Assembly: GCA_023898525.1 (NCBI GenBank) | Contig: CP060227.1 | Span: forward strand, 823,662-887,661 | DNA from: Candidatus Nomurabacteria bacterium | Lineage (GTDB): Bacteria; Patescibacteriota; Minisyncoccia; Phycocordibacterales; UBA918 | Direction: 5' to 3' | Length of the DNA: 64,000 bases | In this document: piece by piece, positions 4,093 to 60,058 of the stretch | Numbering within the stretch: the stretch's first letter is position 1 | How the letters are laid out: every line of letters begins with the position of its first letter | Translations under genes and position numbers: made by a program | Notes under the pieces: generated by a model | Databases searched by the model: none | The model's input: the letters and a program-made list of their open reading frames with translations, nothing else | What the model was told of the DNA's origin: nothing

Positions 4093-4764
4093 ATGCTTAA
4101 TTCCTATAAGAAACAGTCGGGCTTTACTCTCATTGAGATGATTGTATCTTTAGGGGTGTTTGCTGTGGTTGTGACGACAGCAGTGGGTGCACTTTTAGCA
4201 ATTATTTCAGCCAATAAACAACTCCAGGCTGAACAAAGTATTATGACCAATTTATCTTTTGCGATGGACACCATGACTAGAGAGATAAGGACTGGGTACA
4301 ATTATTACTGCAACGCTTATGAGAATTATTCAGCTGGTGGCCCCAACAATATTTTTACTGACGGCAATGACCATGAGGGTGTGGCCGGGGCTAGTAAACG
4401 TGATTGTCCGCTGGGAAGGCAGCCGAGCACACATGAGCTGCAAGGAGTTTCTTTTTACGAGGGTGGACAGAGTATTACCAGCTCTGTTTCTAACTCACAA
4501 CGCATAGCCTATTTCTTTGATGGTAACACCAAGGAAATAAAACGGCGAGTTGGAAATGGTCCGGCTCAGTCGGTTGTTTCGTCCGGTTTGGAGATTATAA
4601 ACGCAGAATTTTATGTCACCGGTAGTGAACCGCAAAGTGAAAATGGCAATGATGTTAAACAACCGACAGTAACAATTTATCTGGAAGCAAAAGAGAAAAA
4701 TAATCCAACCGGAAAGATTTATTCATTACAAACGACCGTAACACAACGAATTCTTGATCTATGA
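4093..4764 (+). CDS. Minor pilin (prepilin-type N-terminal domain)
   Basis: QSGFTLIEMIVSLGVFAVVV near the N-terminus. Confidence 0.65.
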   Translation: MLNSYKKQSGFTLIEMIVSLGVFAVVVTTAVGALLAIISANKQLQAEQSIMTNLSFAMDTMTREIRTGYNYYCNAYENYSAGGPNNIFTDGNDHEGVAGASKRDCPLGRQPSTHELQGVSFYEGGQSITSSVSNSQRIAYFFDGNTKEIKRRVGNGPAQSVVSSGLEIINAEFYVTGSEPQSENGNDVKQPTVTIYLEAKEKNNPTGKIYSLQTTVTQRILDL

Positions 4765-5345
4765 AATACAATAAGCAACAACAATCCGGTTTTTCTCTTA
4801 TCGAAACTTTAGTGGCAATTTCGATTTTGTTGCTGGTTATTGTGGCGCCTATGACTATTTCGTCTAAGACAGCCAAGAGCTCCACTTTTGCCACTGAGCA
4901 GATACAGGCTTTTTTCTTGGCACAAGAAGGTTTGGAGTTAGCACAAGCAGCTCGCAACGAATTACAGCTCAAGTATTTTGAAGGTAGCCAACTAGACCCT
5001 TGGGGAGAGTTTGTTAATGGGGCAACTTACGCTGAATGTTTTAGTGGTAGCGGCTGTGGTCTGGAGTGGAGTAGTGCGGTAGCTGACAGTCTGGTTGTCA
5101 GTGATTGTGATACTGGTACAAAGTGTCGCATGTACTTGGGTGTGAACGATCGACAACATTTTACTTATAGCAGTAGTGGTACAACAATTCAGCCGTTTAC
5201 CAGAAAAATTAGGATTACTGCCACACCGGGCGCTACCGACAGGGAGGTTTTGGTGACATCAACCGTAACGTGGCGTACGGGCTCGCTTGTGGCTGACCAA
5301 AAGGTTGAGCTTGATACTTATTTATTTAATACTTATGTCAATTAG
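4761..5345 (+). CDS. Minor pilin (prepilin-type N-terminal domain)
   Basis: QSGFSLIETLVAISILLLVIV. The start overlaps the upstream stop by 4 nt (ATGA). Confidence 0.65.
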   Translation: MKYNKQQQSGFSLIETLVAISILLLVIVAPMTISSKTAKSSTFATEQIQAFFLAQEGLELAQAARNELQLKYFEGSQLDPWGEFVNGATYAECFSGSGCGLEWSSAVADSLVVSDCDTGTKCRMYLGVNDRQHFTYSSSGTTIQPFTRKIRITATPGATDREVLVTSTVTWRTGSLVADQKVELDTYLFNTYVN

Positions 5346-5937
5346 TTTAAACACAAAACAGTCTGGTTTTGCTTTATTAATCTCTCTAATTGTGGTGGGA
5401 GTGGTTGTCTCGGTTGGCCTAACCATACTTGATTTGACCATCAAGCAACTATCTTTGTCTACTAACTCAAAGGATTCAGAGATAGCTTTTCATGCTGCCA
5501 ATGCTGGGCTTGAGTGTGCTCAGTATTGGCGTATTAAAGAGGAAGATAATCTTGAGCAGGGTAATGATGTGGTGTTTGAATGTTTTGGTCAAACCTTACC
5601 AGCTACGTCTAAAGTAAATATTCCTTCCGCTGATTTGATAAAAGGAAATGCACATACTTATGATTTTAAGTTTACTTGGGGAGCTGCTTCACTACAGCGC
5701 TGTTCTGAGGTGCGGATGTTGCTTTTGACTTCTGACGATGGTTCAACCGGGGCTGGGGTTGATAATGTCTCAACTTATATACCAGGATATGTATCACCTA
5801 GTGGTAATAATAAGTTTGAGTGTGAACCGGGCGGCCGCTGCACTCTGACTTCGGTACGTGGTTATAATCAGTCGTGTGGTGGTGCATCTTCAGGTGTTTA
5901 CGGTACCCTACAGCGAGAAGTTTTGCTAGAATCATAG
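5335..5937 (+). CDS. Pilin-like protein with an atypical N-terminus lacking Glu+5 (PilX/pseudopilin-like)
   Basis: MSISLNTKQSGFALLISLIVVGVVVSVG. The start is chosen at the internal ATG at 5335 rather than the track start 5287, which would overlap the upstream gene. Confidence 0.5.
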   Translation: MSISLNTKQSGFALLISLIVVGVVVSVGLTILDLTIKQLSLSTNSKDSEIAFHAANAGLECAQYWRIKEEDNLEQGNDVVFECFGQTLPATSKVNIPSADLIKGNAHTYDFKFTWGAASLQRCSEVRMLLLTSDDGSTGAGVDNVSTYIPGYVSPSGNNKFECEPGGRCTLTSVRGYNQSCGGASSGVYGTLQREVLLES

Positions 5938-5941
5938 GGTT

Positions 5942-7960
5942 ATGAAAAATGATTCAGAGAGCCGAAAGCGCCTTAGTGAATTGCGTAAATTGGTTGATTA
6001 TCACCGGCATCTTTACCACTCTAAAGATGCTCCAGAGATTTCTGATCAAGCCTACGACGCTTTACTGCGTGAGTTGGGGGCTTTAGAAGAAAAACTAGAA
6101 GGTAAGAAAAGTCAAATAAGTGAAGCGGTGGGAGGTGATGTCAGTAATGCTTTTGCTAAAGTAAAGCACGAGGTACCGCAGTGGTCGTTTGATAATGTAT
6201 TTGACCTAAAAGAATTGACGGCTTGGGAGGAGCGTCTTTACCGCTATGTTCATAAGCAGGGCATGGAAGTGTCTAAGGTGGATTACGTGGTTGAACATAA
6301 GATTGACGGTTTAAAGCTGGTGATTGAATACAAGGCGGGCGAATTCTTTAGAGCTTTAACGCGTGGTGATGGTGAGGTGGGTGAAGATGTGAGTCATACT
6401 GCTCGTACTATTAAGTCATTACCTAAGCATCTTAAATATCCGGTTGATCTGATCTGTGTTGGTGAAGTGTGGATGGCGGCTGATGAATTTGAAAAATTAA
6501 ACACTGAGCGTCAGAAAATGGGCGACAGTCTTTTTGCTAACCCGAGAAATGCCGCCGCCGGTTCGCTGCGTCAACTTGATCCAGCAGTAGCCAGGTCCAG
6601 GAACTTGTCACTTTTTGTCTATGATGTTGATCGATTTGGGGGGCGGGAAGCGAAGCTTCCCGCCCCCGCGACCCAGTGGGAAGAACTTCAACTCCTTAAA
6701 AAACTAGGCCTACCTACCAACTCCTACCCTAAGTGTTGCCGAACCTTGGCTGAAGTAGAGGAATATTATCAAGAGTGGAAGACAAAGCACGAAGATTTGC
6801 CTTACGGAGTTGACGGGGTGGTAGTAAAGGTTAATTCGGTAGAAGTTCAAACGGTAGCCGGCTACACTGCTAAGTCACCGCGGTTTGGTATTGCTTATAA
6901 ATTTCCAGCCGTTGAAACCACTACAATCGTTGAGGACATCCAATTGCAGGTTGGTCGGACTGGTGTAGTTACTCCGGTGGCTCATCTGCGACCGGTTACG
7001 GTCGATGGTTCGACGGTGACCAGGGCTACACTTCATAACGAAGACCAAATCAAACGGCTGGATGTACGAGTGGGTGATACGGTTATAATTCGCAAAGCTG
7101 GTGACGTGATCCCTGAGGTGGTGATGGTTTTGCCAGAATTGAGACCGGAAAGCAGTCGACCATATAAATTCCCGAGGACAGTAAAAGATTGTGGTGGTGA
7201 CGGTTTGATTGAGCGTATACCAGGTACCGCCGCTTATCGTTGTGTTTCACTTGACTCGGACTTTGTGCATAGGCAACGAATGTATTATTTCGTAGCAAAA
7301 GGGGCTTTTAATATCGATGGGGTTGGTCCGCGAATTATCGACGCTTTACTTGAAAATAATCTAATTAAGGATGCGGCTGACCTCTTTACCCTTACAGTGG
7401 AACAATTTCTATCTTTACCAGGATTCAAAGAAAGGGCAGCCCAAAATGCAGTGACTGCTATTCAAAATGCCAAGCGAGTCTCCTTAGCTCGACTTCTGGT
7501 TGGTTTATCAATCGAACATGTTGGCGAAGAAACAGCCCGGCTTCTGGCCAAGAATTTTCCAAGTATTGAAGCAATCTTAGAGGCTAAATATGAGGATTTG
7601 GTGGTAATTGATGGGGTGGGTGAGGTGATTGCGGATACTTTAGTCTCTTGGCAAGCGGACAAAGAAGAGCAGTCTTTGATCAAAAAGCTGCTGCCGCACT
7701 TAGATATTTATAATGATGAAACAGAGGTTGGAAGTGAGCTTGAAGGAAAGACCTTTGTATTTACTGGTACGCTGACAAAATTTACACGACCGGAGGCGCA
7801 AGATAAAGTTAGAAAATTAGGTGGAAACGTAGCTAGTTCAGTGTCGACAAAAACTGACTATGTAGTAGTTGGTGAGGCGGCTGGTAGCAAAGCCAAGCAA
7901 GCTCGGGATTTGGGGGTGACAGTCTTGTCAGAAGCAGAGTTTTTAGAGCTCGTGGCATGA
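5942..7960 (+). CDS. ligA: NAD-dependent DNA ligase LigA
   Basis: 672 aa. Adenylation motif KIDGLK, OB fold, Zn finger CGG...C, HhH motifs and a C-terminal BRCT domain. Confidence 0.9.
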   Translation: MKNDSESRKRLSELRKLVDYHRHLYHSKDAPEISDQAYDALLRELGALEEKLEGKKSQISEAVGGDVSNAFAKVKHEVPQWSFDNVFDLKELTAWEERLYRYVHKQGMEVSKVDYVVEHKIDGLKLVIEYKAGEFFRALTRGDGEVGEDVSHTARTIKSLPKHLKYPVDLICVGEVWMAADEFEKLNTERQKMGDSLFANPRNAAAGSLRQLDPAVARSRNLSLFVYDVDRFGGREAKLPAPATQWEELQLLKKLGLPTNSYPKCCRTLAEVEEYYQEWKTKHEDLPYGVDGVVVKVNSVEVQTVAGYTAKSPRFGIAYKFPAVETTTIVEDIQLQVGRTGVVTPVAHLRPVTVDGSTVTRATLHNEDQIKRLDVRVGDTVIIRKAGDVIPEVVMVLPELRPESSRPYKFPRTVKDCGGDGLIERIPGTAAYRCVSLDSDFVHRQRMYYFVAKGAFNIDGVGPRIIDALLENNLIKDAADLFTLTVEQFLSLPGFKERAAQNAVTAIQNAKRVSLARLLVGLSIEHVGEETARLLAKNFPSIEAILEAKYEDLVVIDGVGEVIADTLVSWQADKEEQSLIKKLLPHLDIYNDETEVGSELEGKTFVFTGTLTKFTRPEAQDKVRKLGGNVASSVSTKTDYVVVGEAAGSKAKQARDLGVTVLSEAEFLELVA

Positions 7961-9729: not shown

Positions 9730-10350
9730 ATGGATTCAACTTTAAATACTACAACCACAGCTACCACTAACACCGGAGGGGTACCTCTAGAACCAGTTAC
9801 GTTTGATGTTGTATCAGCAGTAGTCGGTCTAATTACTGGCACTTCGTACACCGGAGTGACTGATTTTTTTGGTGGTTTATGGAACGCGTTTGTTATCATA
9901 TCCTACACACTTTCCATCATAATGCTTCTTATTTATGTTTACGCCGCTACTCAGTATCGGCAACTATCTAACTTGCGCTTAGAAATGATGCATAAAAGAG
10001 AGCGATTGTATGATGAGCAGTTTCGTAGCGGTCCAAGAAACAGTCGTTTGGAGGATATTGATAAGCATATAACTTCAGATAACCCAAATGACTGGAAATT
10101 GGCTATTATAGAAGCTGATATAGTCCTGGATGATGAATTAAAGAAAGTTGGGTATACAGGAACATCGCTTGGTGAAAGACTGCGTAGTATCAATACAGCC
10201 CAGTTGAACAGTCTTGACGATGCCTGGCAAGCTCATAAGGTGCGAAACCAAATAGCACACGGTGGAGCAGATTTTGTCCTGACTAAGCACTTGGCCGAAA
10301 ATACCATCAAACAGTACAAGCGAGTTTTTGGGGAGCTGGGTATACGTTAA
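9730..10350 (+). CDS. Hypothetical membrane-anchored protein with a HEPN-like Rx4H motif
   Basis: Thr-rich N-terminus, one TM helix (WNAFVIISYTLSIIMLLIYVY) and a helical C-terminal domain containing KVRNQIAHGG (R-x4-H). Confidence 0.45.
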   Translation: MDSTLNTTTTATTNTGGVPLEPVTFDVVSAVVGLITGTSYTGVTDFFGGLWNAFVIISYTLSIIMLLIYVYAATQYRQLSNLRLEMMHKRERLYDEQFRSGPRNSRLEDIDKHITSDNPNDWKLAIIEADIVLDDELKKVGYTGTSLGERLRSINTAQLNSLDDAWQAHKVRNQIAHGGADFVLTKHLAENTIKQYKRVFGELGIR

Positions 10351-10445: not shown

Positions 10446-10567
10446 TTGATTTTAATTAGCATAGGTCCCAGACATGTCATTGCTTTTTAGTAAAAAATGA
10501 TGTATTGTGTTGACTTAAGGCTAATCACGTTAGTCTTTTTAATTTAGAGTACTGGAATAAATACGTA

Positions 10568-10885
10568 GCGGGGTGAGAAAGTGTCAAAACACTTTCGCAA
10601 GACCTTGCCTAGTATTTCTTGAGGCTACGAAAAGAAATACTGACAAGGTGTACAGATCCTGTAAGGATGAGGAGAGGAAACTTTTTCGTTCCAGATAAGG
10701 TAAAAATAAATACATAGCGTGACTAAGAGAGGTATCGAGCGAGAGAATTATATAGCTCTCATAACCTCCCTGGAGAACGCTTTTGTTTGAGGAGAGGTAA
10801 AAATAAATACATAGCGGGGTAGAGGAGAGGTACCTCGGGAGGCTCATAACCTCCAGACCCCGGTTCGATTCCGGGCCCCGCAACA
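10568..10885 (+). ncRNA. tRNA-like / candidate structured RNA locus: three imperfect tandem repeats (R1-R3) ending in a T-arm plus acceptor. tmRNA is an alternative reading, less well supported
   Basis: AATAAATAC(A/G)TAGCG(G/T)G occurs three times (about 10556, 10704, 10802). CTCATAACCTCC occurs twice. The 3' end is CCCCGGTTCGATTCCGGGCCCCGCA. Strong internal hairpins are present. Confidence 0.35.
10815..10882 (+). ncRNA. Degenerate tRNA-like element with a CAU (Met-type) anticodon loop
   Basis: Acceptor GCGGGG/CCCCGC. D-like stem GAGG/CCTC. Anticodon stem GGAGG/CCTCC with loop CTCATAA. T-arm CCCGG-TTCGATT-CCGGG. It is one nt short at positions 8-9 and has a 6-bp acceptor stem. Confidence 0.4.
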
Positions 10886-10936
10886 CTAAGAAAAAACCAA
10901 GAGTATAACTCTTGGTTTTTTCTTAGTGTTGCGGGG
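10876..10936 (+). terminator. Long (about 27-bp stem) hairpin/terminator that overlaps the 3' acceptor strand of the tRNA-like element
   Basis: ccccgcaacactaagaaaaaaccaagagtataactcttggttttttcttagtgttgcgggg is a perfect inverted repeat with an inner T-run. Confidence 0.6.
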
Positions 10937-11040
10937 CGATAAAACTTTTGCTTAGCATTAAAAAATGTGTCCAGGTGAAAAAAATAATTTTAACTTTGCT
11001 ATACTTTAACTCATTATAGACTAAATTAATTGTTGCTATT

Positions 11041-14000
11041 ATGAATTACTCTATTTATAAAAAACCGCAAACAGCTGGATGTGTAAGTAACTCATTTAAT
11101 TTAGCCATTACTAAAAGTGCGAGTTTTGTTCTCGCACTTCTGCTTATATTAGGGTCGTTAGAAAACGTTTCCTTTGCAGCTGTTCTTACTAATGGCGATG
11201 CTGGATATATTACCAACATTCAAACCCGTGATGGAAGTGATCTGTTTAGATCTGATGTACGAGAGGGAAGTGGTGGATTCTTATACGCATATGACATTCC
11301 CGTCCCACCTGGTGTTAACGGCCTCACCCCGCAAATCTCGCTACAGTACAACAGTCAGGGCAGTTCGGACCAAGATATACTTGGCTATGGTTGGAATCTT
11401 TCTATTCCATACATTGAACGGGTGAACAAACACGGCATCAATAAGCTCTTCGACCCCGCCTACGAAACCTTTTACTCCAGTCTTTCTGGTGAGCTTGTAT
11501 TCGATGGGGTAGATTACCTCACAAAAATCAACCAAGGCGACTTCATGAGATATAGCCGATTAAGTAATGGGTGGGTTGTTACTACAAAAGACGGTACCGA
11601 ATATCACTTTGGTTCTGACGTAGTAGCCCAACAGTCAGACCCGACCGATATCACTAACATTTCTCGTTGGTACCTCAGCTCGATTACTGACACTAACGGC
11701 AATATGGTCTCATATTCATACGTTAAAGACACTGGCGCAATTTATCCTAGTACCATCACTTACGGCCCATACACCATCGTGTTCACAACCGAAGCTGCTC
11801 CCACTCACTCGTCCTATAGTCTTGGCTTTAAGGTTGAACGAGATCAGCGTATCAATGCTATTGAAATAAAGGAAAATACCACAATCTTCACTCGACACGA
11901 CCTAACCTACGCTACTGGTATCAATACTCAACGTGACCTTCTGGAGACAATTACTCAAACTGACGTTATCACCAACACTAGCTTACCGGCGGTGATCTTT
12001 GATTACGGCGGCGAAGAAATTCCTCATTGGCAGAGCGACAGTTCGTTTGTATTCCCAGAGCCAATGGGACTTCAAGACAACGGTGTTCGGTTTGGTGACC
12101 TGAATGGTGATGGTCTTACGGATATGATTCGATACGAACGATACTGGAACGACATTCCCTCTGCACGGTGGACAGCTCGTCGTGTACACATCAATAAAGG
12201 CAATGGTAACTGGGATATAGATGTCCCGTGGAGCTGGGATGATATTGAGACACCGTTCTTCTTACACATTAATGATGGTGTATTCAGTAACACCGATAAG
12301 CGTTACGACATGGGCGCGCGCTTAATCGATGTTAACGGAGATGGGCTAGATGACTTCGTCGCTGCTTACAACTGCCTAGACTGGAGTAGTTCAGACTGTT
12401 CAAATGCACCAAACTATATGAAGGAAATTCTAGGTCCAATCCAAATGGATGTCTACCTGAACTCTGGCTCAGGTTTTGTAAAAGACGGCACTAACTGGTT
12501 AAATTTGCAGGCTATGTCTAGTTGGGATTATTCTCCTGCTGATATGACCAATCCAGGCCGAGCATTTGTTGATGTGAATGCTGACGGCTTACCAGACATT
12601 GTTCAATCAGTCGCTACGCTAAACTTCGGCTCGCATCCAAGTGAAAATGTAGCTTCAAATATTTGGATAAACACGGGTAATGATTGGGAACTTTCATCCC
12701 TTACTCTTCCTGCGGCACTTGCCAAATATCCGTGGCACCCTAGTTACCCAAATCTTCGTAAATTCAGTGACTATGGAACTCGATTTGCTGACGTTAACGA
12801 CGATGGGTTAATCGATGTTTTACGAGGATATCGACAGTCATTCAGTGGTAGCGTTAATACGTATACTGACGAAAAAACTGTATACATCAACACTGGTGAT
12901 GGTTGGGAAGAAGACGTGTCTTGGAACTTACCTGTTGAGTTTGTTATTCAAGATCAAACTTCTGGTTATCAGATGTTTGATTTTAACGGTGATAAACTTC
13001 CAGATATTCTTCAATCGCACTACCATAACAATAATGGTTTTAGTTATAATTTATACCTGAACAAAGGTACTACATGGCATCTTGAGAATTACTCAGTGAA
13101 CAGTACTCACTATCCAGTGTATCCTCAGCCACCTTTCCCGCTTACCAGGACAGCCGCTTATACAGGCGGTGGTGGTACGGCTATGATCGATTTTGATGGT
13201 GATAATCTACTTGACGCCTGGAATCTGTATTATCTAGACTTAGATGAAACTCAAAGCTCCGGTGGGAGTGTTTTCCTAAATACTTCAGATATTCCAGACC
13301 TAGTGACCTCAATCATTGATAAAAGCGGTTCCATTACTTCTATCAACTACGACGGCTACCTTGCTACTGTTCAATCAGACTATGTAAAAGTTGGTAACTC
13401 ACCAGTCAATCCGATAGTGGTCACTCATAAAACCATCGATAATAACCACGGTCACACGGTCACTGAAACATATGAGTACAATGATGCTCATCAGTACGTC
13501 GAGGTGAGCGATATTTTTGATCGCAAATTTGCCGGCTTCGGAAAAGTCACCAAAACCACCGATTTAGGAAAAGAAACCACTTACTACCACCAAGGAAACG
13601 GCGTAGCGACTACAACCGAAGAGGGCATAGATGACGAAGCATTAATCGGGCAGGTTTATCGCACAGAAATAACTGATCTTTCTGACAATCTCTATACACT
13701 TTCTCGTCAAAATTTTGCCACCACTTCACTTGGTAACGGCAGTACGTTTGTAAAACTGGAAAGCGGTCTCAAGCTTGATTACGATGGTGATAGCGACAAG
13801 AAAGCTTCGGCCAACAGCTACACCTACGACAACACCAATGGCTCACTCCTTACCAAAACGGAGTGGGGAGAGGTGAGTGGAAATACTGACGGTACTTTCT
13901 CAGATACCGGTACCGACAAGCAAGTGACAACTATTGAGTACGCTACCAATGCGAACGGTATAGTTCTACCATCCAAGCAAACCTTGACCGACAACTCTGA

Positions 14001-17000
14001 CACCAAAGTCCAAGAGTCTCGCTTCTACTACGATAACCAACCGCTTGGCACAGTTACTCTAGGTAACAAGACCAAAGAAGAGAATTGGCTAGGTGGCAGT
14101 AGTTATACAAACAAACAGTGGACATACAACAGCCTAGGGCTGGTAACCGCCGAAACTGATCCAGATGGTAATACCACCAACTATACTTACGATACCTATA
14201 ACTTATATCCAGCTAGTGTCACCAACGCCCTCAATCAAACCACACAGTACGAGTATGACTATTCTTCCGGGCAAGTAGCGACCACCACTGACGCTAATGG
14301 CAATATTTTTGCCACCACTTACGACGGGTTTGGTCGACCGCTTACCGTTACATCACCTGACCCACAGACCGGTACTCCGGTAGTACAGACCGAGTATGTC
14401 TATACCGATACTCCCGGCAGTGTCAGTGTGCAAAAGAAAGATTATCTAAATAGCGGATTAGTTAAAAACTCGTATACTTTCCTAGATGGCTTTGGCCGAA
14501 AGATGCAGGAAAGGCAAGAAGCGGAAGGAATGGATCAATACGTGGTGCGTGATTATGTCTACGGAAGCAATGATCTTTTGGAAAAAGAGTCACTGCCGTA
14601 CTTTGGTACCGGAGCGGCGAGAAGTGCTTCTACCACCAACGCAAACCTCTTAAGCACCTACGCTTACGATCCATTGGCTAGAGTAACAAGCGTAGCAACT
14701 GTGGTTGGTACGACCACTACCGCCTACGACCAATGGAAAGAAACCGTTACCGATACTGCCGGCAATGATAAGGTATTCCAGTATGACGCTTTTGGTCGAT
14801 TGGCAGCCGTGACCGAAAACGAGGGAACCAATTCATACACTACCAACTACACTTGGAATAATCTCGGTAATCTGACCAAGATAACTGACGCCGAAAGTAA
14901 TGTGCGAAATATAAGTTACGACGGACTTGGTCGCCGTACTAGCCTGGAAGATTTGCATGCACCAAGTGATAGTACTTTTGGAACTTGGACTTTTGCTTAT
15001 GACAACGCTGGCAACCTGACCAGCAAGACTAATCCAGAGAGTCAGACTACCAACTACACCTACGACGCTCTTAATCGCCAGTTGACCGAAGACTACACCG
15101 GACAGACTGGTACGGAAATCACTTATACTTATGATACTTGTACGGGTGGCGTGGGGCAACTTTGTACCGCTGCCAATTCTTCCGCTACCACTAACTACAC
15201 CTACACCCCAAACAACCTCTTGGCTTCAGAAGCTAAAACAATAAGTAGCAATACCTACACCACTAGCTATGAGTATGACCGCCAAGGCAACCAAACACTC
15301 ATTACTTATCCAGATAATTCAGAAGTGAAGTACACCTTTAATAAAGGTGGGCAGGTAGACAAAGTGGAACAAAAAGAGGGTGGGGGAACTTTTGCAAACA
15401 TTGTGAGTAATATTGATTATGGACCACATGGTCAGATGGAAAATATCGAATACGGCAATGGCTCTATAACTACTCGTACTTATGATGCGACCGAACTGTA
15501 CCGATTGAAAAATATCCTCACCACTGCCACCAGTACCTATGGCACCGGCGGTCCGGGAGAGGAGCTTATAAGTATTGAAGCCAAACTGGCTTCACTTACC
15601 ACTGAGCTCCCGCTTGCGACTACCAGTGAAGCCTTGGTGGTGGAGACGGTAGAGGAGCCGGTAGAGGAGATGGTCGCAACTTCTTCTGATCTTGCTATCG
15701 AACCGGCTACTTCAGATTCAACTACTGCAACTTCTACTAATATCGAAGCGACAAGTACAAACCAAGAAATAGCCGAAGCCGAACTCACCTCGACTACAAC
15801 CACAACTGATGAGGTGGTGGAGACTAGCGAAATTGCCACCACCACCACGGTCGCTGCTCCAGACGCGACTACCACTGCGTCTTCGTCGTCTGAAACCGCT
15901 ACCGGTACAGCTGACCAAGTGGTGAGTGTGGTAGAAGCTGATGTGGTATTTGATATACCTACCACCACTGCCACCAGTACTTTACCAGCAGTACCAACAG
16001 CTATTGCTTCTACCAGCAGTAACTCCACACCACCAGTTGCGGAAGCGGTGGTAGTTAATCAGGTAGTGGCTAAAAGCAAGCTAAAGCTAAAAATCAACAA
16101 CGCCCACGAAGCCCGAATGTGGCAAAAATACCACCATGAGCGAGTAGCTGGATTAGAAGCAGAGGGAGCTAATCAGGCTGTGCTTGATAAAGCCAAGTAT
16201 GCTCAGGATCAGTTGGAGTCATACTTAATTGAGGATGGTTATCTAAAAGAAAAAGGTGGAAGCGTAAAAGGACACGCTAAAGATTATGTAGAGAGCCAGG
16301 GTAAGAAACTTATAAGCAAAGTGGTGGACTTTATCTTACCGGATACCGTCCAAGCTTACCTATTTGGGTTAGAAGATTTTGAAAATTGTTCAGCTCTTCC
16401 GTGTACCTTTGACAACAATGTATCTTGGGGAGGGGTTACCCCGGCTTTAGATAACACCAGTAAGGTGGCTGGTGCGGATTCACTAAAAGAAACTGTGACT
16501 GGAGAAGGTTCCGGTGGCTTAGAGTTTGTTGATCAAAACACCGGCGAGATTTATGCTCAGTTTAAGGTATTTATTCCGAGTAATATGACTTGGGGACCTT
16601 CCGGTTATCATGGCATTCTTAGATTTGAAGATACGATCAACAACTCAGTTTTCTGGATGAATGTTGAGGATTGGGGCACAGCCAGACTAACCATGATGGG
16701 AGATGTTCTACCGTGGACTGACACCGGAATTGATTTGGTGAAAGGGGCGGTCAACACTATTGAAGTACGCTTTAAGACTGGAGCCACTAACGGCGATGTA
16801 GATATCTGGCTCAACAACACCAACGAAAGTGCACCTGACTACAACGGAAGTGGTACCCTAAACACCGGTACTGATAATGTTGACTATGTAATCGCCGGAG
16901 TTACTTATACTCCCGAAGCGATTAGTACCACCTACTTCGATGATATTGCTATCGACACTACCTTTATTGGTGAGCTAACTTCAGGTGGCCAACCGCCGGT

Positions 17001-18960
17001 GGTGCCATTTGTTGAGAATGTCCAAAACCTTTCCTATACCTACGACACTGTCGGTAATATTACCGAGATAGTAGACAACAGCGGTACCGACTCCGCCGGT
17101 ACCATCACCTACACCTACGACGACCTCTACCGCCTTATCTCAGCTTCCACTACTAATGCTAGTACTACTCCATACCAAGAAACCTATACCTACAACAGTA
17201 TCGGTAACGTCCTCAGCAAGTCTGATGTTGGTACGTATAGTTATGATGGTGGACAGAGTGGAGGAACCAGCTACTACATCTATGACGATAGCATCACTAC
17301 CGGTTGGACAGACTGGTCTTGGTGGACTACCATCAACCCAAGCGCCACCTCTCCTGTCTACTCAGGACTCTATTCATTGGGGTTAGTATACACCCAACCC
17401 TGGGCTGGTATCTCTTATCACAACAACAGTTTCGACAGCTCACCATATGATAATCTAGAGCTGGCGGTTAATGTCGGTACCGACACTACAGCCAATCTCT
17501 ACCTCTATTTCACCAACAGTGCCAGTACACCTTTTACCATCATTAACCTAAAAGACTACGTCACCGGCGGTTTCCAAGCCAACACCTGGCACAGCCTCAC
17601 CATTCCACTTTCAGACTTAGGTTACCAAAACTATCAAGGCGCCACTGAACTAAACATAGAGACCGACCAAGCCGCGACAGTGAATTTTGACAGTATTCGT
17701 TTGACTAGTACCGGCGGAGGAGGAAGCTACGCCAACCCCCACGCTGCCACCACCATCGGCGGCACCACCTACACCTACGACCAAAACGGTAACCTCCTAA
17801 CCGACGGTAATACCACTAACACCTGGAACTACCGCAACGAACTAACTGAGTCCACAAAAGCAGGAATAACGACCAGCTATGGATATGACCACAATGGTGA
17901 TCGAGTGTTCAAGACTACTTCCGAAGGAACGACTTATTATCCTTTCGCTAATTACGAAATTACTGATACTGGTACTACCACAAAGCACATCTACATGGGT
18001 GACCAATTAGTTGCCACGATTGAAGGTTCTGGTGCTGGAGCGTTGACGTATTACAACCATCTTGATCATCTCGGTGGTACCAGTGTGGTAACCGATGGTA
18101 TTGGAGCTATCACCCAAGAATTGGACTACTACCCATTCGGTGATACGAGGATAGATAATGAGTACGGAGACTTTAGACAACATATTCAGCACTCAGGTCA
18201 CCAGAAAGACGATGAAACAGGACTCATCTACCAAGGTGCACGTTACTATAATTCTGGTATCGGACGATATACATCACAAGATCCAGCAAACTTACGAAAT
18301 CCAGCGCAGTTCCTCTATGACCCACAACAGTTAAATACCTATGCGTATGCAAGGAATAATCCACTGAAGTACATTGATCCTACGGGGGAGAAGATTGAGC
18401 TTGTTTCTAGACCAGTAATTTCTTCTTATGATGCACATATGTTCTATCGAGTTACTCCAGATAATCCAGGCCAGATTTCTATTGATGGAATTCCTCAGGG
18501 CACTGAACAGTTTTCGATAGGGGCTTACAACCGAGGTGGTTTCTTAGGTATCGGCAATAAATTGACTCCAGAGTTTAGTTACGAAGGAGGTCCAGTGAAT
18601 ACTGACACCCCATACTTAAACGGGGAAAAGGCGCCTACAGCAAGTGTTGTTATCACACCACCAAACAACATGTCAGATACAGAGTTTATTAACAGTCTTG
18701 GTGCTTCAGCAAATAGTATCGACAAGACAGGTTATTATATGTTTGGTAAAACTGGTAAATTTGGTGTAGCTAATTCAAATAACTTCGTATACGAAGTTGG
18801 TAATAGGAGTGGTGTTGGTAATCAGGTCAGCTCGTTCAATTCAGGTGCATATACTCCAGGACAGAGTCAAGGAATCCCAACTGCAACATTGCTTGATAAT
18901 ATAAGGTCTAGCCTGAACAGTATTAAGGAGAGATTGTCCAAAAAAGATGATAGCGAATAA
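11041..18960 (+). CDS. Giant secreted polymorphic-toxin protein (2639 aa): signal peptide, SpvB/TcB-like N-terminal domain, FG-GAP-like repeats, RHS/YD repeats, S/T-rich linker plus LamG/CBM-like insert, Rhs core, variable C-terminal toxin domain
   Basis: Signal peptide ASFVLALLLILGS. DxNGDGxxD repeats (FGDLNGDGLTDM, IDVNGDGLDDF, VDVNADGLPDIV...). Many YD repeats (YTYDALNRQ, YEYDRQGNQ, YTYDTVGNI). Rhs core GARYYNSGIGRYTSQDP...NTYAYARNNPLKYIDPTGE, followed by about 200 unique residues. Confidence 0.85.
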   Translation: MNYSIYKKPQTAGCVSNSFNLAITKSASFVLALLLILGSLENVSFAAVLTNGDAGYITNIQTRDGSDLFRSDVREGSGGFLYAYDIPVPPGVNGLTPQISLQYNSQGSSDQDILGYGWNLSIPYIERVNKHGINKLFDPAYETFYSSLSGELVFDGVDYLTKINQGDFMRYSRLSNGWVVTTKDGTEYHFGSDVVAQQSDPTDITNISRWYLSSITDTNGNMVSYSYVKDTGAIYPSTITYGPYTIVFTTEAAPTHSSYSLGFKVERDQRINAIEIKENTTIFTRHDLTYATGINTQRDLLETITQTDVITNTSLPAVIFDYGGEEIPHWQSDSSFVFPEPMGLQDNGVRFGDLNGDGLTDMIRYERYWNDIPSARWTARRVHINKGNGNWDIDVPWSWDDIETPFFLHINDGVFSNTDKRYDMGARLIDVNGDGLDDFVAAYNCLDWSSSDCSNAPNYMKEILGPIQMDVYLNSGSGFVKDGTNWLNLQAMSSWDYSPADMTNPGRAFVDVNADGLPDIVQSVATLNFGSHPSENVASNIWINTGNDWELSSLTLPAALAKYPWHPSYPNLRKFSDYGTRFADVNDDGLIDVLRGYRQSFSGSVNTYTDEKTVYINTGDGWEEDVSWNLPVEFVIQDQTSGYQMFDFNGDKLPDILQSHYHNNNGFSYNLYLNKGTTWHLENYSVNSTHYPVYPQPPFPLTRTAAYTGGGGTAMIDFDGDNLLDAWNLYYLDLDETQSSGGSVFLNTSDIPDLVTSIIDKSGSITSINYDGYLATVQSDYVKVGNSPVNPIVVTHKTIDNNHGHTVTETYEYNDAHQYVEVSDIFDRKFAGFGKVTKTTDLGKETTYYHQGNGVATTTEEGIDDEALIGQVYRTEITDLSDNLYTLSRQNFATTSLGNGSTFVKLESGLKLDYDGDSDKKASANSYTYDNTNGSLLTKTEWGEVSGNTDGTFSDTGTDKQVTTIEYATNANGIVLPSKQTLTDNSDTKVQESRFYYDNQPLGTVTLGNKTKEENWLGGSSYTNKQWTYNSLGLVTAETDPDGNTTNYTYDTYNLYPASVTNALNQTTQYEYDYSSGQVATTTDANGNIFATTYDGFGRPLTVTSPDPQTGTPVVQTEYVYTDTPGSVSVQKKDYLNSGLVKNSYTFLDGFGRKMQERQEAEGMDQYVVRDYVYGSNDLLEKESLPYFGTGAARSASTTNANLLSTYAYDPLARVTSVATVVGTTTTAYDQWKETVTDTAGNDKVFQYDAFGRLAAVTENEGTNSYTTNYTWNNLGNLTKITDAESNVRNISYDGLGRRTSLEDLHAPSDSTFGTWTFAYDNAGNLTSKTNPESQTTNYTYDALNRQLTEDYTGQTGTEITYTYDTCTGGVGQLCTAANSSATTNYTYTPNNLLASEAKTISSNTYTTSYEYDRQGNQTLITYPDNSEVKYTFNKGGQVDKVEQKEGGGTFANIVSNIDYGPHGQMENIEYGNGSITTRTYDATELYRLKNILTTATSTYGTGGPGEELISIEAKLASLTTELPLATTSEALVVETVEEPVEEMVATSSDLAIEPATSDSTTATSTNIEATSTNQEIAEAELTSTTTTTDEVVETSEIATTTTVAAPDATTTASSSSETATGTADQVVSVVEADVVFDIPTTTATSTLPAVPTAIASTSSNSTPPVAEAVVVNQVVAKSKLKLKINNAHEARMWQKYHHERVAGLEAEGANQAVLDKAKYAQDQLESYLIEDGYLKEKGGSVKGHAKDYVESQGKKLISKVVDFILPDTVQAYLFGLEDFENCSALPCTFDNNVSWGGVTPALDNTSKVAGADSLKETVTGEGSGGLEFVDQNTGEIYAQFKVFIPSNMTWGPSGYHGILRFEDTINNSVFWMNVEDWGTARLTMMGDVLPWTDTGIDLVKGAVNTIEVRFKTGATNGDVDIWLNNTNESAPDYNGSGTLNTGTDNVDYVIAGVTYTPEAISTTYFDDIAIDTTFIGELTSGGQPPVVPFVENVQNLSYTYDTVGNITEIVDNSGTDSAGTITYTYDDLYRLISASTTNASTTPYQETYTYNSIGNVLSKSDVGTYSYDGGQSGGTSYYIYDDSITTGWTDWSWWTTINPSATSPVYSGLYSLGLVYTQPWAGISYHNNSFDSSPYDNLELAVNVGTDTTANLYLYFTNSASTPFTIINLKDYVTGGFQANTWHSLTIPLSDLGYQNYQGATELNIETDQAATVNFDSIRLTSTGGGGSYANPHAATTIGGTTYTYDQNGNLLTDGNTTNTWNYRNELTESTKAGITTSYGYDHNGDRVFKTTSEGTTYYPFANYEITDTGTTTKHIYMGDQLVATIEGSGAGALTYYNHLDHLGGTSVVTDGIGAITQELDYYPFGDTRIDNEYGDFRQHIQHSGHQKDDETGLIYQGARYYNSGIGRYTSQDPANLRNPAQFLYDPQQLNTYAYARNNPLKYIDPTGEKIELVSRPVISSYDAHMFYRVTPDNPGQISIDGIPQGTEQFSIGAYNRGGFLGIGNKLTPEFSYEGGPVNTDTPYLNGEKAPTASVVITPPNNMSDTEFINSLGASANSIDKTGYYMFGKTGKFGVANSNNFVYEVGNRSGVGNQVSSFNSGAYTPGQSQGIPTATLLDNIRSSLNSIKERLSKKDDSE

Positions 18961-21705: not shown

Positions 21706-21779
21706 GTCGATGTAGCTCAGTCGGTTAGAGCGTAGCACTCATAAAGCTAAGGTCGGAGGTTCGATCCCTCCCATCGACA
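21706..21779 (+). tRNA. tRNA-Met (anticodon CAT), elongator type; could be tRNA-Ile2(LAU)
   Basis: Cloverleaf: acceptor GTCGATG/CATCGAC, D-arm GCTC-AGTCGGTTA-GAGC, anticodon loop CTCATAA, T-arm GGAGG-TTCGATC-CCTCC. G1-C72 is paired, so it is not an initiator. Confidence 0.85.
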
Positions 21780-22091
21780 CAATGTAGCGAAGCGGAATTG
21801 CGGAGAGGGGAAGCGCAAGGTTTGCGTCTAGCAAACCGAGCAGGGATCGAACGACGGGATGATGTCAGTATACGAGCGAATGAGGCGATAAAACAATGTT
21901 TAAACATAGTTTTATCGCGGCACCATGTATTTTTGTGAGTGAAACTAAACAAAATACACCGGTAACCGTCAGGATGACTTCTTCTATCTTTTCGAAGCGG
22001 GATGCTTTGAAAATTTACAAAATCATGTATAATGCTAGGCACAAACTTTATTTACCGAGGAAAAAGAAGGTTTTTGATAAGTTTGTTGACT

Positions 22092-22421
22092 GCGGTGGTA
22101 GCTCAACTGGTTAGAGCACCCGCCTGTAGACGTGCAGCTTTTTGTGCGAAAGCCAAATTGAAACTCTCCGGGATATCGGTGAAGGCTAAGTCTTCTTGAA
22201 GATATGCGAATACCGAGGGAACCCTATACACAAAAAAACATAGTATAGGGGCTCCGTAGAGACTAGATACCGGGGTACCTAAACCCAGCACTGCTTTTAA
22301 CTCTAAATATATTTAAAGTTAAAAGCAGTGCTGGACATGGTAAAGATATAGTCCACGCCTTTGTGAAAACATTGGAAGAAGTGCACGCGGGAGGTTGCGG
22401 GTTCGAGTCCCGTCTACCGCG
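22092..22421 (+). tRNA. tRNA-Asp (anticodon GTC) interrupted by a 256-nt group I intron in the anticodon loop (between positions 35 and 36)
   Basis: 5' exon GCGGTGGTAGCTCAACTGGTTAGAGCACCCGCCTGT. 3' exon CACGCGGGAGGTTGCGGGTTCGAGTCCCGTCTACCGCG. The T-arm and G73 are Asp-like (E. coli tRNA-Asp has the identical T-arm GCGGGTTCGAGTCCCGT). The spliced anticodon loop is CTGTCAC. Confidence 0.75.
22128..22383 (+). ncRNA. Group I self-splicing intron (256 nt) within tRNA-Asp
   Basis: The exon ends in U, paired to an intron G (P1: exon CTGT / intron GCAG). The intron ends in G. S element AAGATATAGTCC at 22343-22354. R/P7 GACTAGATACCGGGG at 22261-22275. GGACATGG P6-like. AAATTG P4-like. P10 CGTG:CACG. 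Confidence 0.75.
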
Positions 22422-22435
22422 CAGTTAGGTAAAAA

Positions 22436-29909: not shown

Positions 29910-29931
29910 TGCCGGATCGTCTAATGGTAAG
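29910..29931 (+). other. Partial duplicate of the 5' 22 nt of tRNA-Gln
   Basis: TGCCGGATCGTCTAATGGTAAG versus the tRNA 5' end TGCCAGATCGTCTAATGGTAGG. Confidence 0.5.
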
Positions 29932-29997
29932 CAGAGCTTTCTTTCATCATTCGCTCGGACACAGAAGAGGTATTTTGTACAAATTTATATTCACCGC

Positions 29998-30068
29998 TGC
30001 CAGATCGTCTAATGGTAGGACTCCAGGTTTTGGTCCTGGCTATCTAGGTTCGAGTCCTAGTCTGGCAG
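29998..30068 (+). tRNA. tRNA-Gln (anticodon TTG)
   Basis: TGCCAGA-TC-GTCT-AATGGTA-GGAC-T-CCAGG-TTTTGGT-CCTGG-CTAT-CTAGG-TTCGAGT-CCTAG-TCTGGCA-G. U1-A72 and G73 are Gln-type. Confidence 0.8.
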
Positions 30069-30125
30069 CGGTGGATGGAAATACAAAATACCTCTTTTGT
30101 GTCTCTCGCTCATTCGAAAGTAGGT

Positions 30126-30304
30126 AAAACAATCTGGGAGATTGTTTTACGGGTTTTGCACCACAAGGGTATTTCTATTTTAATAGTCGTTTCACTCATT
30201 TAAAATAAGTCCACCACAAGGGTATTTCTATTTTCATGGTCGCTATCGCTTTCTGAAAATTAGGTCGTCCATGGTATTTAGGCTGAGACAGTCTGGGAGA
30301 CTGT
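30126..30304 (+). repeat. Structured repeat region downstream of tRNA-Gln: two 31-nt direct repeats plus twin CTGGGAG-loop hairpins
   Basis: DR CACCACAAGGGTATTTCTATTTT(A/C)AT(A/G)GTCG at 30159-30189 and 30212-30242. Hairpins AAAACAATCTGGGAGATTGTTTT (30126-30148) and ACAGTCTGGGAGACTGT (30288-30304), with an A-T to G-C change that keeps the stem paired. Confidence 0.5.
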
Positions 30305-60041: not shown

Positions 60042-60058
60042 CCTGTTATACTTAACTA

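Follow-up and report, generated by a model that had tools for sequence, protein, structure and literature searches.

An ordinary initiator tRNA gene preceded by two candidate tRNA-associated repeat units in a Candidatus Nomurabacteria genome

Introduction

Why should a tRNA gene be preceded by two incomplete copies of its own beginning and run at its end into a long perfect hairpin? A locus of a Candidatus Nomurabacteria genome (CPR/Patescibacteria) raises this question. The whole stretch of DNA that we analysed, 64 kb, is referred to here as the window, and all coordinates are positions within it unless another locus is named; L numbers denote individual related loci. A preliminary description of the window had offered three readings of the repeats: a decaying tRNA gene with duplicated 5′ ends, a tRNA-like regulatory RNA or a divergent tmRNA. 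Here we report which of the copies is a complete tRNA gene, what the other two consist of, how they are distributed among relatives and which explanation accounts best for them.

Results

The last copy is an ordinary initiator tRNA gene

10802-10812, plus strand: leader directly 5′ of the tRNA, AATAAATACAT
10813-10883, plus strand: initiator tRNA gene (tRNA-fMet), 71 nt, found by ARAGORN and by Rfam RF00005; CCA not encoded

By its sequence, the segment at 10813-10883 is an initiator tRNA gene of ordinary type, strongly conserved and with a predicted role in initiation. ARAGORN called a tRNA-Met(CAT) at 10813-10884, and RF00005 scored 10813-10883 at 57.3 bits against a threshold of 29, covering model positions 1-71 of 71. 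This copy had been described as one nucleotide short at positions 8-9 and as having a 6-bp acceptor stem. Neither point held: the alignment to the tRNA model is full-length from A10813, with U8 and A9 present, and the acceptor stem (AGCGGGG/CCCCGCA) has seven positions, the first of them an A1xA72 mismatch. The exact Met-type loop reported for it is there, CTCATAA, with the anticodon CAT at 10845-10847.

Two initiator features were recognised. A1 stands opposite A72, leaving no Watson-Crick 1:72 pair, and the D stem GAGG/CCTC provides A11:U24, the purine11:pyrimidine24 combination of initiators. A second CAU tRNA in the window (21706-21779) carries a G1:C72 pair instead of the mismatch. Across 167 related loci, position 1 was A in 146 and C in 21, opposite A72 in nearly all. 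A run of three G:C pairs at 29-31:39-41 is absent; the anticodon stem GGAGG/CCTCC has G:C at 30:40 and 31:39 and A:U at 29:41, an arrangement that is invariant in the clade. The window tRNA is the commonest allele, identical in 96 of the 167 loci, and where relatives deviate from it the changes are compensatory (U7:A66, A7:U66 and A13:U22). Because of the normal tRNA score, the commonest allele and the compensatory variants, we do not regard the gene as decaying. The preliminary description, which had suggested decay, had itself named a normal tRNA score as evidence against it, and such a score was returned by both ARAGORN and RF00005. RNase P would be expected to cleave after T10812, and the motif AAGTAAAAnTAAATAyAT ahead of the tRNA recurs in the relatives that carry upstream elements.

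An enlarged spacer with a putative promoter

10480-10508, plus strand: promoter-like site read from the sequence, putative; -35 TTGCTT (10480-10485), 17-nt spacer, -10 TATTGT (10503-10508)

The gene order ligA-gatC-gatA-hyp206-tRNA is conserved among relatives. The spacer between hyp206 and the tRNA measures 463 nt in the window versus ~85-150 nt in the relatives read. A generic sigma-70 scan made no call at 10480-10508, and we therefore treat the promoter as putative; transcription would start near 10515. In relatives, a block of the form TTGC..N17..TG.TGTAyxxT lies just past the hyp206 stop codon, ahead of the first element, and a loose pattern for this block matched 58 of 121 non-redundant loci.

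Copy 1 carries a conserved three-hairpin module

10556-10574, plus strand: copy 1 leader, AATAAATACGT, followed at 10567-10574 by tRNA positions 1-8, AGCGGGGT
10573-10676, plus strand: B-core, GUGAG-P1-CGCAAGA-P2 (distal hairpin)-UGUACAG-P3 (10656-10668, GUA loop)-GAGGAGAG
10669-10677, plus strand: D-arm fragment (tRNA positions 10-18), GAGGAGAGG, directly behind B-core

The motif AATAAATACATAGCG was found at 10556, 10705 and 10802 with at most one mismatch, and none of 100 shuffles contained three matches. The three imperfect leader copies noticed in the preliminary description are thus real, and it is also true that only the last one keeps a T-arm and a 3′ acceptor strand. The notion of duplicated 5′ ends stands in part: copies 1 and 2 each repeat the 5′ part of the tRNA in degenerate form, but they represent two recurrent types, conserved even in distant relatives, rather than fresh random decay.

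Copy 1 (10567-10677) consists of displaced tRNA positions 1-8 fused to a 104-nt module of three hairpins, which we named B-core; P1 and P3 lie near its two ends. Model R1 matched the window copy with 99.4 bits (E 2e-24). In alignment A1, which comprises 21 sequences, compensatory changes were present at 17 of 20 base pairs, and 94.5% of the cells were paired, a level reached by none of 500 shuffles (slid controls, 35-46%). The junctions CGCAAGA and UGUACAG and the GUA loop are nearly invariant. Going by this covariation, the pairing of B-core is under selection. G.U and A.C pairs were about equally frequent (~7 each), which leaves unsettled which strand is active and whether selection acts on RNA or on DNA. 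A coding reading (in the window, the frame from GCA AGA) was discarded, the distal hairpin varying in length and not in multiples of three. The junction between B-core and the D-arm fragment was found as in the window in 20 related B-type loci.

With Rfam 15, the segment 10556-10800, which covers copies 1 and 2, gave no match at curated thresholds; at E<=10 its sole match was a chance-level HTH-XRE (14.6 bits, minus strand), and B-core had none. No known Rfam family was found in the related loci for the copy 1 and copy 2 elements or for the downstream element described below, and a full-text literature search returned no description of these elements.

B-core recurs beside tRNA genes in relatives

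B-core was detected in 20 of 122 non-redundant related loci. Most model matches (68 of 75) lie less than 300 nt from a tRNA gene (fMet, Met, Asp, Gln or Thr), on either strand, within loci that had all been gathered around one tRNA cluster. The flanks of 33 matches were read, and in most of these the core directly follows a duplicate of the 5′ acceptor strand and U8 of the adjacent tRNA. In 23 matches near the initiator it has the orientation of the tRNA and is placed between that gene and the conserved promoter-like block; it also occurs downstream of other tRNAs, and opposite-strand copies lie downstream of the initiator tRNA. Copies from one genome have their variable distal hairpin in common, as seen for those at 10573 and 30283 of the window and for the Gln and Asp copies of L164. 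The module is conserved between genomes whose flanking protein is only ~60% identical.

The copy at 4570-4697 of L008 folds into a closed cloverleaf (z -7.8) using the acceptor sequence of tRNA-Thr, and has the 3′ end of tRNA-Thr repeated directly at its borders over 15 nt. At least one copy is thus predicted, by folding, to close into a cloverleaf-like tRNA mimic.

Among close relatives, L118 and L168 formed the only clean presence/absence pair. Their flanks are 94% identical, and what sets them apart is exactly one unit of 146 nt, lacking in L118, with the 12-nt direct repeat ACATAGCGGGGT at its boundaries; an insertion and a precise deletion would account for this equally well. The number of units varies from 1 to 4 among loci, with identical tandem arrays in L045 (4 x 95 nt), L126 (2 x 91 nt), L051 (2 x 92 nt), L010 (~1.5 x 147 nt) and L108 (~1.5 copies). 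Terminal inverted repeats were not evident in the units read, and we know of no free or excised form of them.

Copy 2 is a degenerate pseudo-tRNA of a recurrent type

10705-10775, plus strand: copy 2, type A pseudo-tRNA; leader (10705-10715), degenerate positions 1-8, AGCGTGAC (10716-10723), and a D-arm remnant
10716-10775, plus strand: copy 2, continued; CGAGC..AATTAT, CTCATAACCTCC (10758-10769) and CTGGAG (10770-10775); no T-arm and no 3′ acceptor strand

Copy 2 retains CTCATAACCTCC at 10758-10769; its positions 1-8 had been given as AGCGGGG, and the actual letters are AGCGTGAC. Elements of this type, called A, were present in 17 of 122 non-redundant related loci, with orthologues in L001, L006, L009, L015, L019, L029, L045, L082, L124 and L126. 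RNAalifold found compensatory changes at none of the 12 predicted pairs of type A, and a hairpin GAGnn..nnCUC drawn by eye is not claimed, its register shifting between sequences. Type A shares lineage-specific variants with the tRNA of its own genome (C16 in L006 and L019, G9 in L029 and L051), which points to concerted evolution. The window copy is more degraded than its orthologues. The stretch CGAGC..AAUyAU is common to genomes whose neutral spacers are unalignable.

The downstream hairpin reaches into the tRNA

10875-10937, no strand assigned: full 30-bp perfect palindrome; arms 10875-10904 and 10908-10937, 3 nt between; the left arm starts within the tRNA (G65 to A73)
10891-10921, no strand assigned: predicted bidirectional intrinsic terminator core; A-tract (10891-10896), stem CCAAGAGT/ACTCTTGG, loop ATA, T-tract (10916-10921)
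10928-10937, plus strand: inverted copy of the tRNA 3′ end, GTTGCGGGGC, inverted from GCCCCGCAAC

The hairpin, previously put at 27 bp, measures 30 bp with no mismatch, and it does take in the 3′ acceptor strand. The window holds 15 long perfect hairpins in its 64 kb, so that length alone does not make this one unusual. Its inner part, CCAAGAGT-ATA-ACTCTTGG followed by TTTTTT (10897-10921), reads as an intrinsic terminator and is predicted to terminate transcription; an automated terminator scan missed 10891-10921, since the extended stem incorporates the T-run. Similar A/T-flanked perfect hairpins stand 3′ of the tRNA in nearly all relatives, and elsewhere in the window. When 10813-10940 was folded (-77.5 kcal/mol), the hairpin displaced the acceptor stem. 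The proposed competition between hairpin and tRNA folding would apply to read-through RNA only, the U-tract at 10916-10921 preceding the outer arm.

We read 10928-10937 as the stub of a downstream element, termed X. In relatives, (T)TGCGG(A/G)GG opens a conserved X element of ~130-270 nt that is closed by a second copy of TCGATTCCGGGCCCCGCAACA; such elements occupy 24 of 130 non-redundant loci, and in L055, L123, L111 and L050 the hairpin likewise extends into the acceptor strand. The best reading of the 30-bp hairpin would be a bidirectional terminator whose stem has been lengthened by the tRNA 3′ end in inverted form. The X element is closed by a stem resembling an acceptor and contains a motif, GGAAUCGA, that recalls the 5′ region of tmRNA. 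As an ssrA on either strand it was rejected: G3.U70 is absent, no model matched, and the short stop context that the sequences share is not preceded by a conserved frame.

Discussion

A proposed tRNA-associated repeat element

We lean towards the reading that a functional initiator tRNA gene has been colonised upstream by two small tRNA-associated insertion or duplication units. Both families appear to recur at the initiator tRNA gene across Paceibacteria. Each unit would close with its own leader and a copy of the tRNA 5′ end, comprising positions 1-8 in the B type and ~1-22 in the A type. Recombination of a unit with the gene would, because the unit ends in that copy, restore an intact tRNA downstream and displace the older 5′ end upstream, and successive displacements could have produced what looked like three tandem tRNA-like repeats. 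Unit 1 would carry B-core, which is multi-copy, lies almost exclusively beside tRNA genes and has its pairing under selection. Unit 2 would be an older, degenerate pseudo-tRNA-fMet in which gene conversion keeps the tRNA-like patches close to the real gene. The whole stretch may be transcribed from the promoter at ~10480-10508; a cut by RNase P at A10813 would free a leader of ~300 nt with both modules, and the transcript would end at the U-tract (10916-10921), its 3′ trailer being trimmed and CCA added. The 30-bp hairpin would combine a terminator with an inverted tRNA 3′ copy left behind by a related downstream element. Units may spread and contract through recombination at shared tRNA ends. 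We regard them as a small tRNA-gene-associated repeat or mobile family, apparently not as a dedicated regulator of tRNA-fMet.

Like REP/BIME, Correia and Rickettsia palindromic elements, the units are ~100 nt long, hairpin-rich, multi-copy and found in either orientation, lie between genes or inside RNA genes, and resemble one another within a genome. Unlike them, B-core covaries across genomes with ~60%-identical proteins, is tied to tRNAs and carries the ends of the neighbouring tRNA. We know of no matching transposase for B-core.

A possible functional leader RNA

A possible, if rather unlikely, alternative is that the leader modules are functional RNA, acting either in cis within the tRNA-fMet precursor or, once released, as a leader RNA in imitation of the initiator tRNA. 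They could then serve as a folding switch competing for the 3′ acceptor strand, or, as decoy or sponge, tie up an enzyme or toxin with specificity for the acceptor stem of the initiator or its anticodon-loop string CUCAUAACCUCC. The selected pairing of B-core speaks for such a role, and the strong conservation of its junctions across genomes whose flanking protein is only ~60% identical would also fit a functional RNA. So do the 23 same-strand positions between promoter and initiator, the exact anticodon-loop string kept by type A and the lowest-energy fold of the predicted transcript, in which AGCGGGG of copy 1 pairs with CCCCGC of the tRNA. There is precedent in Escherichia coli, where transcribed spacers of tRNA operons, including 3′ETS-leuZ and the internal spacers of metZWV, serve as sRNA sponges. 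As in those operons, non-tRNA RNA would be co-transcribed and released by tRNA processing enzymes; unlike those spacers, the modules are structured, repeated and optional. That optional character weighs against function, as at least ~60% of the related genomes have no upstream element beside an identical tRNA, the close relative L118 lacks the unit and copy number ranges from 1 to 4. The same cis role is impossible for B-core copies downstream of other tRNAs, or antisense downstream of the initiator. Type A, moreover, is without covariation, and the acceptor strand of copy 2 in the window is degraded (AGCGTGAC). We know of no target or partner of the leader modules.

A possible tRNA-mimicking element class

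A more far-reaching variant, which we consider unlikely, would make the B type a new class of tRNA-mimicking element. Its three-armed RNA core of ~100 nt would enter copies of tRNA genes after U8, or acquire the acceptor stem of a neighbour, and give cloverleaf RNAs matured by the tRNA machinery, which would be either selfish elements mobile at the RNA level or decoys of the acceptor stem. The L008 fold resembles YrlA (a bacterial Y RNA) and mascRNA in being cloverleaf-like with a tRNA-type closing stem. It differs from both in that Rfam scans gave no sequence or model similarity and in that the closing stem copies the adjoining tRNA. To our knowledge, such parasitism or mimicry of tRNA genes has not been described in bacteria.

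Neutral decay of a tandem array as an improbable alternative

It is improbable that copies 1 and 2 merely represent the neutral decay of a tandem initiator tRNA array, with no element and no selection. The model for this would be metZWV, the tandem initiator tRNA operon of E. coli. The window gene shares with metZWV and other bacterial initiator tRNA genes the CAU anticodon, the unpaired 1x72 and the purine11:pyrimidine24, and with metZWV the head-to-tail copies and, presumptively, a single transcript processed by RNase P. It differs from metZWV in having only one intact copy, the upstream ones being truncated chimeras, and from bacterial initiators in that the clade mostly has A1 instead of C1 and two of the three G:C pairs, with A:U at 29:41. 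Decay would account for the D-arm, anticodon loop and possible T-loop remnant (CTTTTTCGTTCC) that follow one another in tRNA order in copy 2 and in the spacers behind copies 1 and 2. It would also suit type A, which is best conserved where identical to the tRNA, lacks covariation, shows a pattern that could result from gene conversion by the intact tRNA gene and is more degraded in the window than in its orthologues. Against this, B-core has no tRNA counterpart, covaries at 17 of 20 pairs and lies at other tRNA genes with other acceptor sequences; covariation and dispersed copies largely refute neutral decay for copy 1. The persistence of CGAGC..AAUyAU next to unalignable spacers likewise argues against it, as does the expectation that streamlined genomes lose neutral direct repeats fast.

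Scars of integrative elements as an improbable alternative

Quite improbable, too, is the view that the repeats are attachment-site scars of integrase-borne islands or prophages at tRNA-fMet and the modules leftover conserved arm regions. Integrative elements that target tRNAs, as Williams is said to have reported in 2002, duplicate a 3′ portion of the tRNA that begins in the anticodon loop or T-loop. Here, too, insertion would restore an intact tRNA with a partial copy on the far side, and in the downstream units the repeated 3′ portion begins in the T-loop: direct repeats of 15-21 nt flank inserted DNA downstream of tRNA-fMet, tRNA-Asp and tRNA-Thr. In L001, a gene for a 526-aa serine recombinase abuts the tRNA 3′ end, and the region downstream of the tRNA is variable, holding a gene for a 2639-aa SpvB/FG-GAP protein in the window and NTP-transferase genes in relatives. 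In contrast to integrative elements, the inserted segments are just ~95-270 bp long and free of genes, integrase included, the relatives' 3′ repeats enclosing only 130-270 bp, and they form identical tandem arrays. Upstream of the gene it is the 5′ end that is duplicated, over 8-22 nt, which is unusual for these integrases, and hairpin covariation is unexpected for protein-binding arm sites. No second copy of TCGATTCCGGGCCCCGCAA was found in the 64-kb window at up to 3 mismatches, and we discarded the idea of an island there that a repeated tRNA 3′ end would delimit. A viral contig collection contained neither the B-core pattern nor the tRNA pattern, and a phage or viral origin was set aside on these grounds.

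A divergent tmRNA

Read as a divergent tmRNA, 10567-10883 would run from its 5′ acceptor strand through a long insert to the T-arm and the 3′ acceptor strand. This reading has a negligible chance of being right: its topology is real, with a long structured insert parting the acceptor strand from T-arm and 3′ strand as in one-piece or permuted ssrA, tRNA ends around a foreign core in the B type and the lowest-energy fold of the whole transcript pairing the first AGCGGGG with the 3′ CCCCGC, but ARAGORN called no tmRNA in the window or in 1.07 Mb of related loci, the best tmRNA-family match in Rfam at E<=10 (tmRNA_permuted, 14.5 bits against a threshold of 47) fell on the T-arm and hairpin and not on copies 1-2, pair 3:70 is C3:G70 where alanine identity would call for G3.U70, the region encloses an entire tRNA that has a 5′ strand, D-arm and anticodon arm of its own, and the insert is missing in most relatives. 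The absence of a convincing tag ORF, remarked on at the outset, was borne out: ARAGORN reported no tag peptide, no frame is conserved among relatives and the insert does not vary in length by threes.

Significance

The identity of the last copy as an ordinary tRNA-fMet removes the tmRNA and decaying-tRNA readings. What stands out beside it is B-core, a folded module with unusually clean covariation that lies outside Rfam 15 and at tRNA flanks in the loci sampled. The bacteria that carry it form a large group, ultra-small and dependent on hosts, whose genomes tend otherwise to lose DNA that is not essential. Were the module mobile, it would show how small elements can live on essential tRNA genes without killing them, by bringing a replacement tRNA end; were it functional, it would constitute a tRNA-end-capped RNA with a putative partner. 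Either way, the finding accounts for oddities met in annotation of these genomes: partial tRNA copies, long hairpins running into tRNA ends and oversized tRNA spacers.

A normal initiator tRNA in a conserved gene order

In the window, the tRNA(CAU) is preceded by ligA, gatC, gatA and hyp206 (a gene for a 206-aa hypothetical protein at 9730-10350, directly upstream of the tRNA region) and followed by the gene for a 2639-aa SpvB/FG-GAP protein. The order ligA-gatC-gatA-hyp206-tRNA(CAU) was kept in relatives, where hyp206 was only ~60% identical, and the gap between hyp206 and the tRNA reached 463 nt in the window compared with ~85-150 nt in the relatives read. Related loci were gathered by scanning for a 35-nt stretch of the tRNA (55 from species-representative genomes and 110 from metagenomes).

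The locus holds a normal initiator tRNA. ARAGORN called a tRNA-Met(CAT) starting at A10813, and this last of three tRNA-like copies aligned end to end with the Rfam tRNA model RF00005 (57.3 bits, threshold 29). Its acceptor stem counts seven positions and opens with an A1xA72 mismatch, U8 and A9 are both present, the D and T stems have 4 and 5 bp, and the anticodon loop reads CUCAUAA; the preliminary description, by which it lacked 1 nt and had an acceptor stem of only 6 bp, was a misreading. Nor is it a decaying tRNA, as had been suggested: its sequence is the commonest allele, shared by 96 of 167 loci. Among relatives, variants were compensatory (U7:A66, A7:U66 and A13:U22), and position 1 was A in 146 loci and C in 21, opposite A72 in nearly all of the 167. 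The unpaired 1:72 together with A11:U24 in the D stem mark this copy as the initiator, while the second CAU tRNA of the window (21706) carries a G1:C72 pair instead. One of the classical initiator marks is incomplete, 29:41 being A:U. CCA is absent from the encoded sequence. The suggested tmRNA was discarded: ARAGORN reported none in the window or related loci, tmRNA models gave no convincing match, pair 3:70 is C:G and there is no tag.

Recurrent elements upstream of the initiator tRNA

The three repeats described earlier were recovered through their leader motif, AATAAATACATAGCG, which occurs at 10556, 10705 and 10802; three matches were reached in 0 of 100 shuffles. When the upstream regions of all loci were compared, recurrent element types appeared in the same orientation as the tRNA, which they separate from a conserved promoter-like block. 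Besides types A and B, a third, type C, was seen in other genomes. The type A signature was carried by 17 and the type B signature by 20 of 122 non-redundant loci, and in several loci the units were amplified in tandem.

Upstream element types and tandem arrays
Type A, degenerate pseudo-tRNA (window copy 2, 10716-10775): AGCGGGGUAGAGGAGAGGUAyCGAGC..AAUyAU..CUCAUAACCUCC(C)UGGAG
Type B (window copy 1): AGCGGGGU, then a ~100-nt module, then GAGGAGAG
L045: identical tandem copies, 4 x 95 nt
L126: identical tandem copies, 2 x 91 nt
L051: identical tandem copies, 2 x 92 nt
L010: identical tandem copies, ~1.5 x 147 nt
L108: identical tandem copies, ~1.5 copies

L045 (CP060229.1) is a complete Nomurabacteria chromosome, in which the four identical 95-nt units are of type A and one B unit lies farther upstream of tRNA-fMet. 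Type A showed no covariation and was best kept at positions equal to the tRNA. Lineage-specific variants were common to type A copies and the tRNA of their own genome (C16 in L006 and L019, G9 in L029 and L051), a pattern of sequence sharing that indicates gene conversion or recent recombination. Degradation has gone further in window copy 2 than in its orthologues (AGCGTGAC, with a shortened D-arm remnant). The upstream element also has a minimal closed form, AGCGGGGUGAG-P1-CUCAAGACCCCGCAACA, observed in L107 (963-1037) and L163 (4130-4203), where the 5′ acceptor strand, one hairpin and the 3′ acceptor strand stand ahead of the real tRNA.

Short repeats of the tRNA 5′ end mark the limits of the units. 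Two loci, L118 and L168, have upstream flanks that are 94% identical and an identical 120 nt read downstream, and differ by exactly one 146-nt unit with the direct repeat ACATAGCGGGGT at its bounds; gain and precise loss fit this difference equally. The unit consists of the B-core (the three-hairpin module of type B), a spacer, a second leader and AGCGGGGT, so that it ends with its own leader and tRNA positions 1-8. Ahead of the tRNA, the motif AAGUAAAAnUAAAUAyAU recurs among element-bearing genomes.

The B-core is structured, multi-copy and linked to tRNA genes

The consensus of 21 aligned B modules comprises, besides a short closing helix, P1, P2 (whose distal hairpin varies) and P3 (5 bp, GUA loop), with almost invariant CGCAAGA and UGUACAG junctions. 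Changes on both sides that preserved pairing affected 17 of 20 pairs in this alignment, and 94.5% of alignment cells were paired, values reached by 0 of 500 shuffles; sliding the partners lowered pairing to 35-46%. Judged by these substitution patterns, the B-core is a selected structure. It had no match in Rfam 15, even at E<=10.

A covariance model of the B-core, run over the window plus 1.07 Mb of related loci (E at or below ~5e-4), returned 75 matches, 68 of them within 300 nt of a tRNA gene.

B-core matches by neighbouring tRNA
Upstream of initiator tRNA, same strand: 23
Downstream of other CAU tRNA (elongator tRNA-Met or tRNA-Ile2), same strand: 14
Downstream of tRNA-Asp, same strand: 8
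Downstream of tRNA-Gln, same strand: 4
Downstream of initiator tRNA, same strand: 6
Downstream of initiator tRNA, opposite strand: 9
Downstream of tRNA-Asp, opposite strand: 3
Downstream of tRNA-Thr, opposite strand: 1

In most of the 33 matches with flanks read, the module was preceded by the 5′ acceptor strand and U8 copied from the neighbouring tRNA, as in GCGGGGU|GAG (fMet), GCCAAUGU.. (Thr) and UGCGCGGU (Asp), and its 3′ side was joined to the D-arm, T-loop or 3′ acceptor strand of a tRNA copy. One exception to the 5′ junction is a second, weaker window copy after tRNA-Gln (30283-30389, 26 bits). At L008 (4570-4697), the predicted fold is a closed four-way junction (-52.8 kcal/mol, z -7.8) whose closing stem is tRNA-Thr acceptor sequence; the 3′ end of the convergent tRNA-Thr flanks this element as a direct repeat of 15 nt. 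The otherwise variable distal hairpin was common to the two window copies and to the Gln and Asp copies of L164, which points to copying within genomes.

The region of tRNA-Gln (29998-30069, within 29910-30389, + strand) has companions of the same kinds as tRNA-fMet: upstream, a partial copy of the 5′ end (29910-29937, tgccggatcgtctaatggtaag), then a leader/trailer stem of ~20 bp (29960-29979 with 30082-30101), a type-C-like hairpin (30125-30149), two occurrences of the direct repeat CCACAAGGGTATTTCTATTTT and the weaker B-core copy named above. In the second CAU tRNA of the window, the trailer (21781-21860, + strand) reads GCGCAAG, a hairpin, CGAGCAG and GGATCGAAC, which matches the T-loop region of this tRNA in reverse complement; many relatives gave partial B-core matches (model positions 29-92) at this site. 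A tRNA-Asp(GUC) at 22093-22425 (+ strand), missed by ARAGORN and by Rfam at curated thresholds, is interrupted within its anticodon, between positions 35 and 36, by an insert of ~270 nt (5′ half ...CCCGCCTGT; 3′ half CACGCGGGAGG...CTACCGCGCA). This insert matches the group I introns described at position 35/36 of Patescibacteria tRNA-Asp/Asn (PMC13011429), and tRNA-Asp is intact in the same cluster of related loci.

The downstream hairpin is extended by an inverted copy of the tRNA 3′ end

The hairpin described earlier as 27 bp is real, although its arms are in fact 30 nt each and 100% complementary (10875-10904 and 10908-10937). Its centre (10891-10921) is a predicted bidirectional terminator of standard type, composed of A6, CCAAGAGT-ATA-ACTCTTGG and T6, and relatives carry similar perfect A/T-flanked hairpins directly after ..CCCCGCAACA. 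At 10928-10937, GTTGCGGGGC repeats the tRNA 3′ end in inverted orientation, and this accounts for the outer 8-10 bp. The competition with tRNA folding that had been suggested holds in part: folding predicts that the acceptor stem gives way to the 30-bp hairpin upon transcriptional read-through, but the U-tract lies before the outer arm and terminated RNA therefore cannot form the full hairpin.

The extension relates to a conserved 130-270-nt element, X, found in 24 of 130 non-redundant loci, which starts with a (U)UGCGG(A/G)GG motif and ends with a second copy of TCGATTCCGGGCCCCGCAACA and its own terminator. Where the X motif abuts the terminator (window, L055, L123 and L111), the hairpin extends into the acceptor strand. 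The window retains only the first 10 nt of an X-type element, and no second tRNA 3′ copy was found in it. At L010 (2560-2830) and ~24 other loci downstream of tRNA-fMet, X is structured and shows an acceptor-like strand, a covarying 9-bp hairpin, the T-loop-complementary GGAAUCGAAC and a second tRNA-fMet 3′ end; some copies contain the B-core, in either orientation. Since an A.C mismatch on the tRNA strand becomes G.U on the other, the latter may be the strand from which X is read. It matched no known family.

Among the window's 15 long near-perfect hairpins, one with 31 perfect bp (59979-60042) has an arm, GTAGCCTAGCTGGGTGGG, that resembles the tRNA 5′ part (position 8 to D-arm). Directly after the tRNA terminator, the SpvB/FG-GAP gene (11041-18960, + strand) occupies the position held by NTP-transferase genes in relatives, making the tRNA 3′ flank a variable region. 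In L001, a 526-aa serine recombinase gene (4753-6333, - strand; Resolvase/Recombinase domains) ends inside or adjoining the tRNA-fMet 3′ end, which suggests a real integrated element at this tRNA in one relative.

A proposed tRNA-associated repeat or mobile element

No description of these elements appeared in the literature searched. Transcription would start from the promoter-like block at 10480-10508, which a generic promoter scan did not call; RNase P could then release the leader, and units may spread via recombination through shared tRNA ends. A function of the released RNA is possible, if less likely. Altogether, a small repeat or mobile element associated with tRNAs seems to us a better reading than a dedicated regulator, given that most relatives are devoid of the elements, copy number varies, the module is also found beside other tRNAs and on the opposite strand, and the unit is missing from a close relative.
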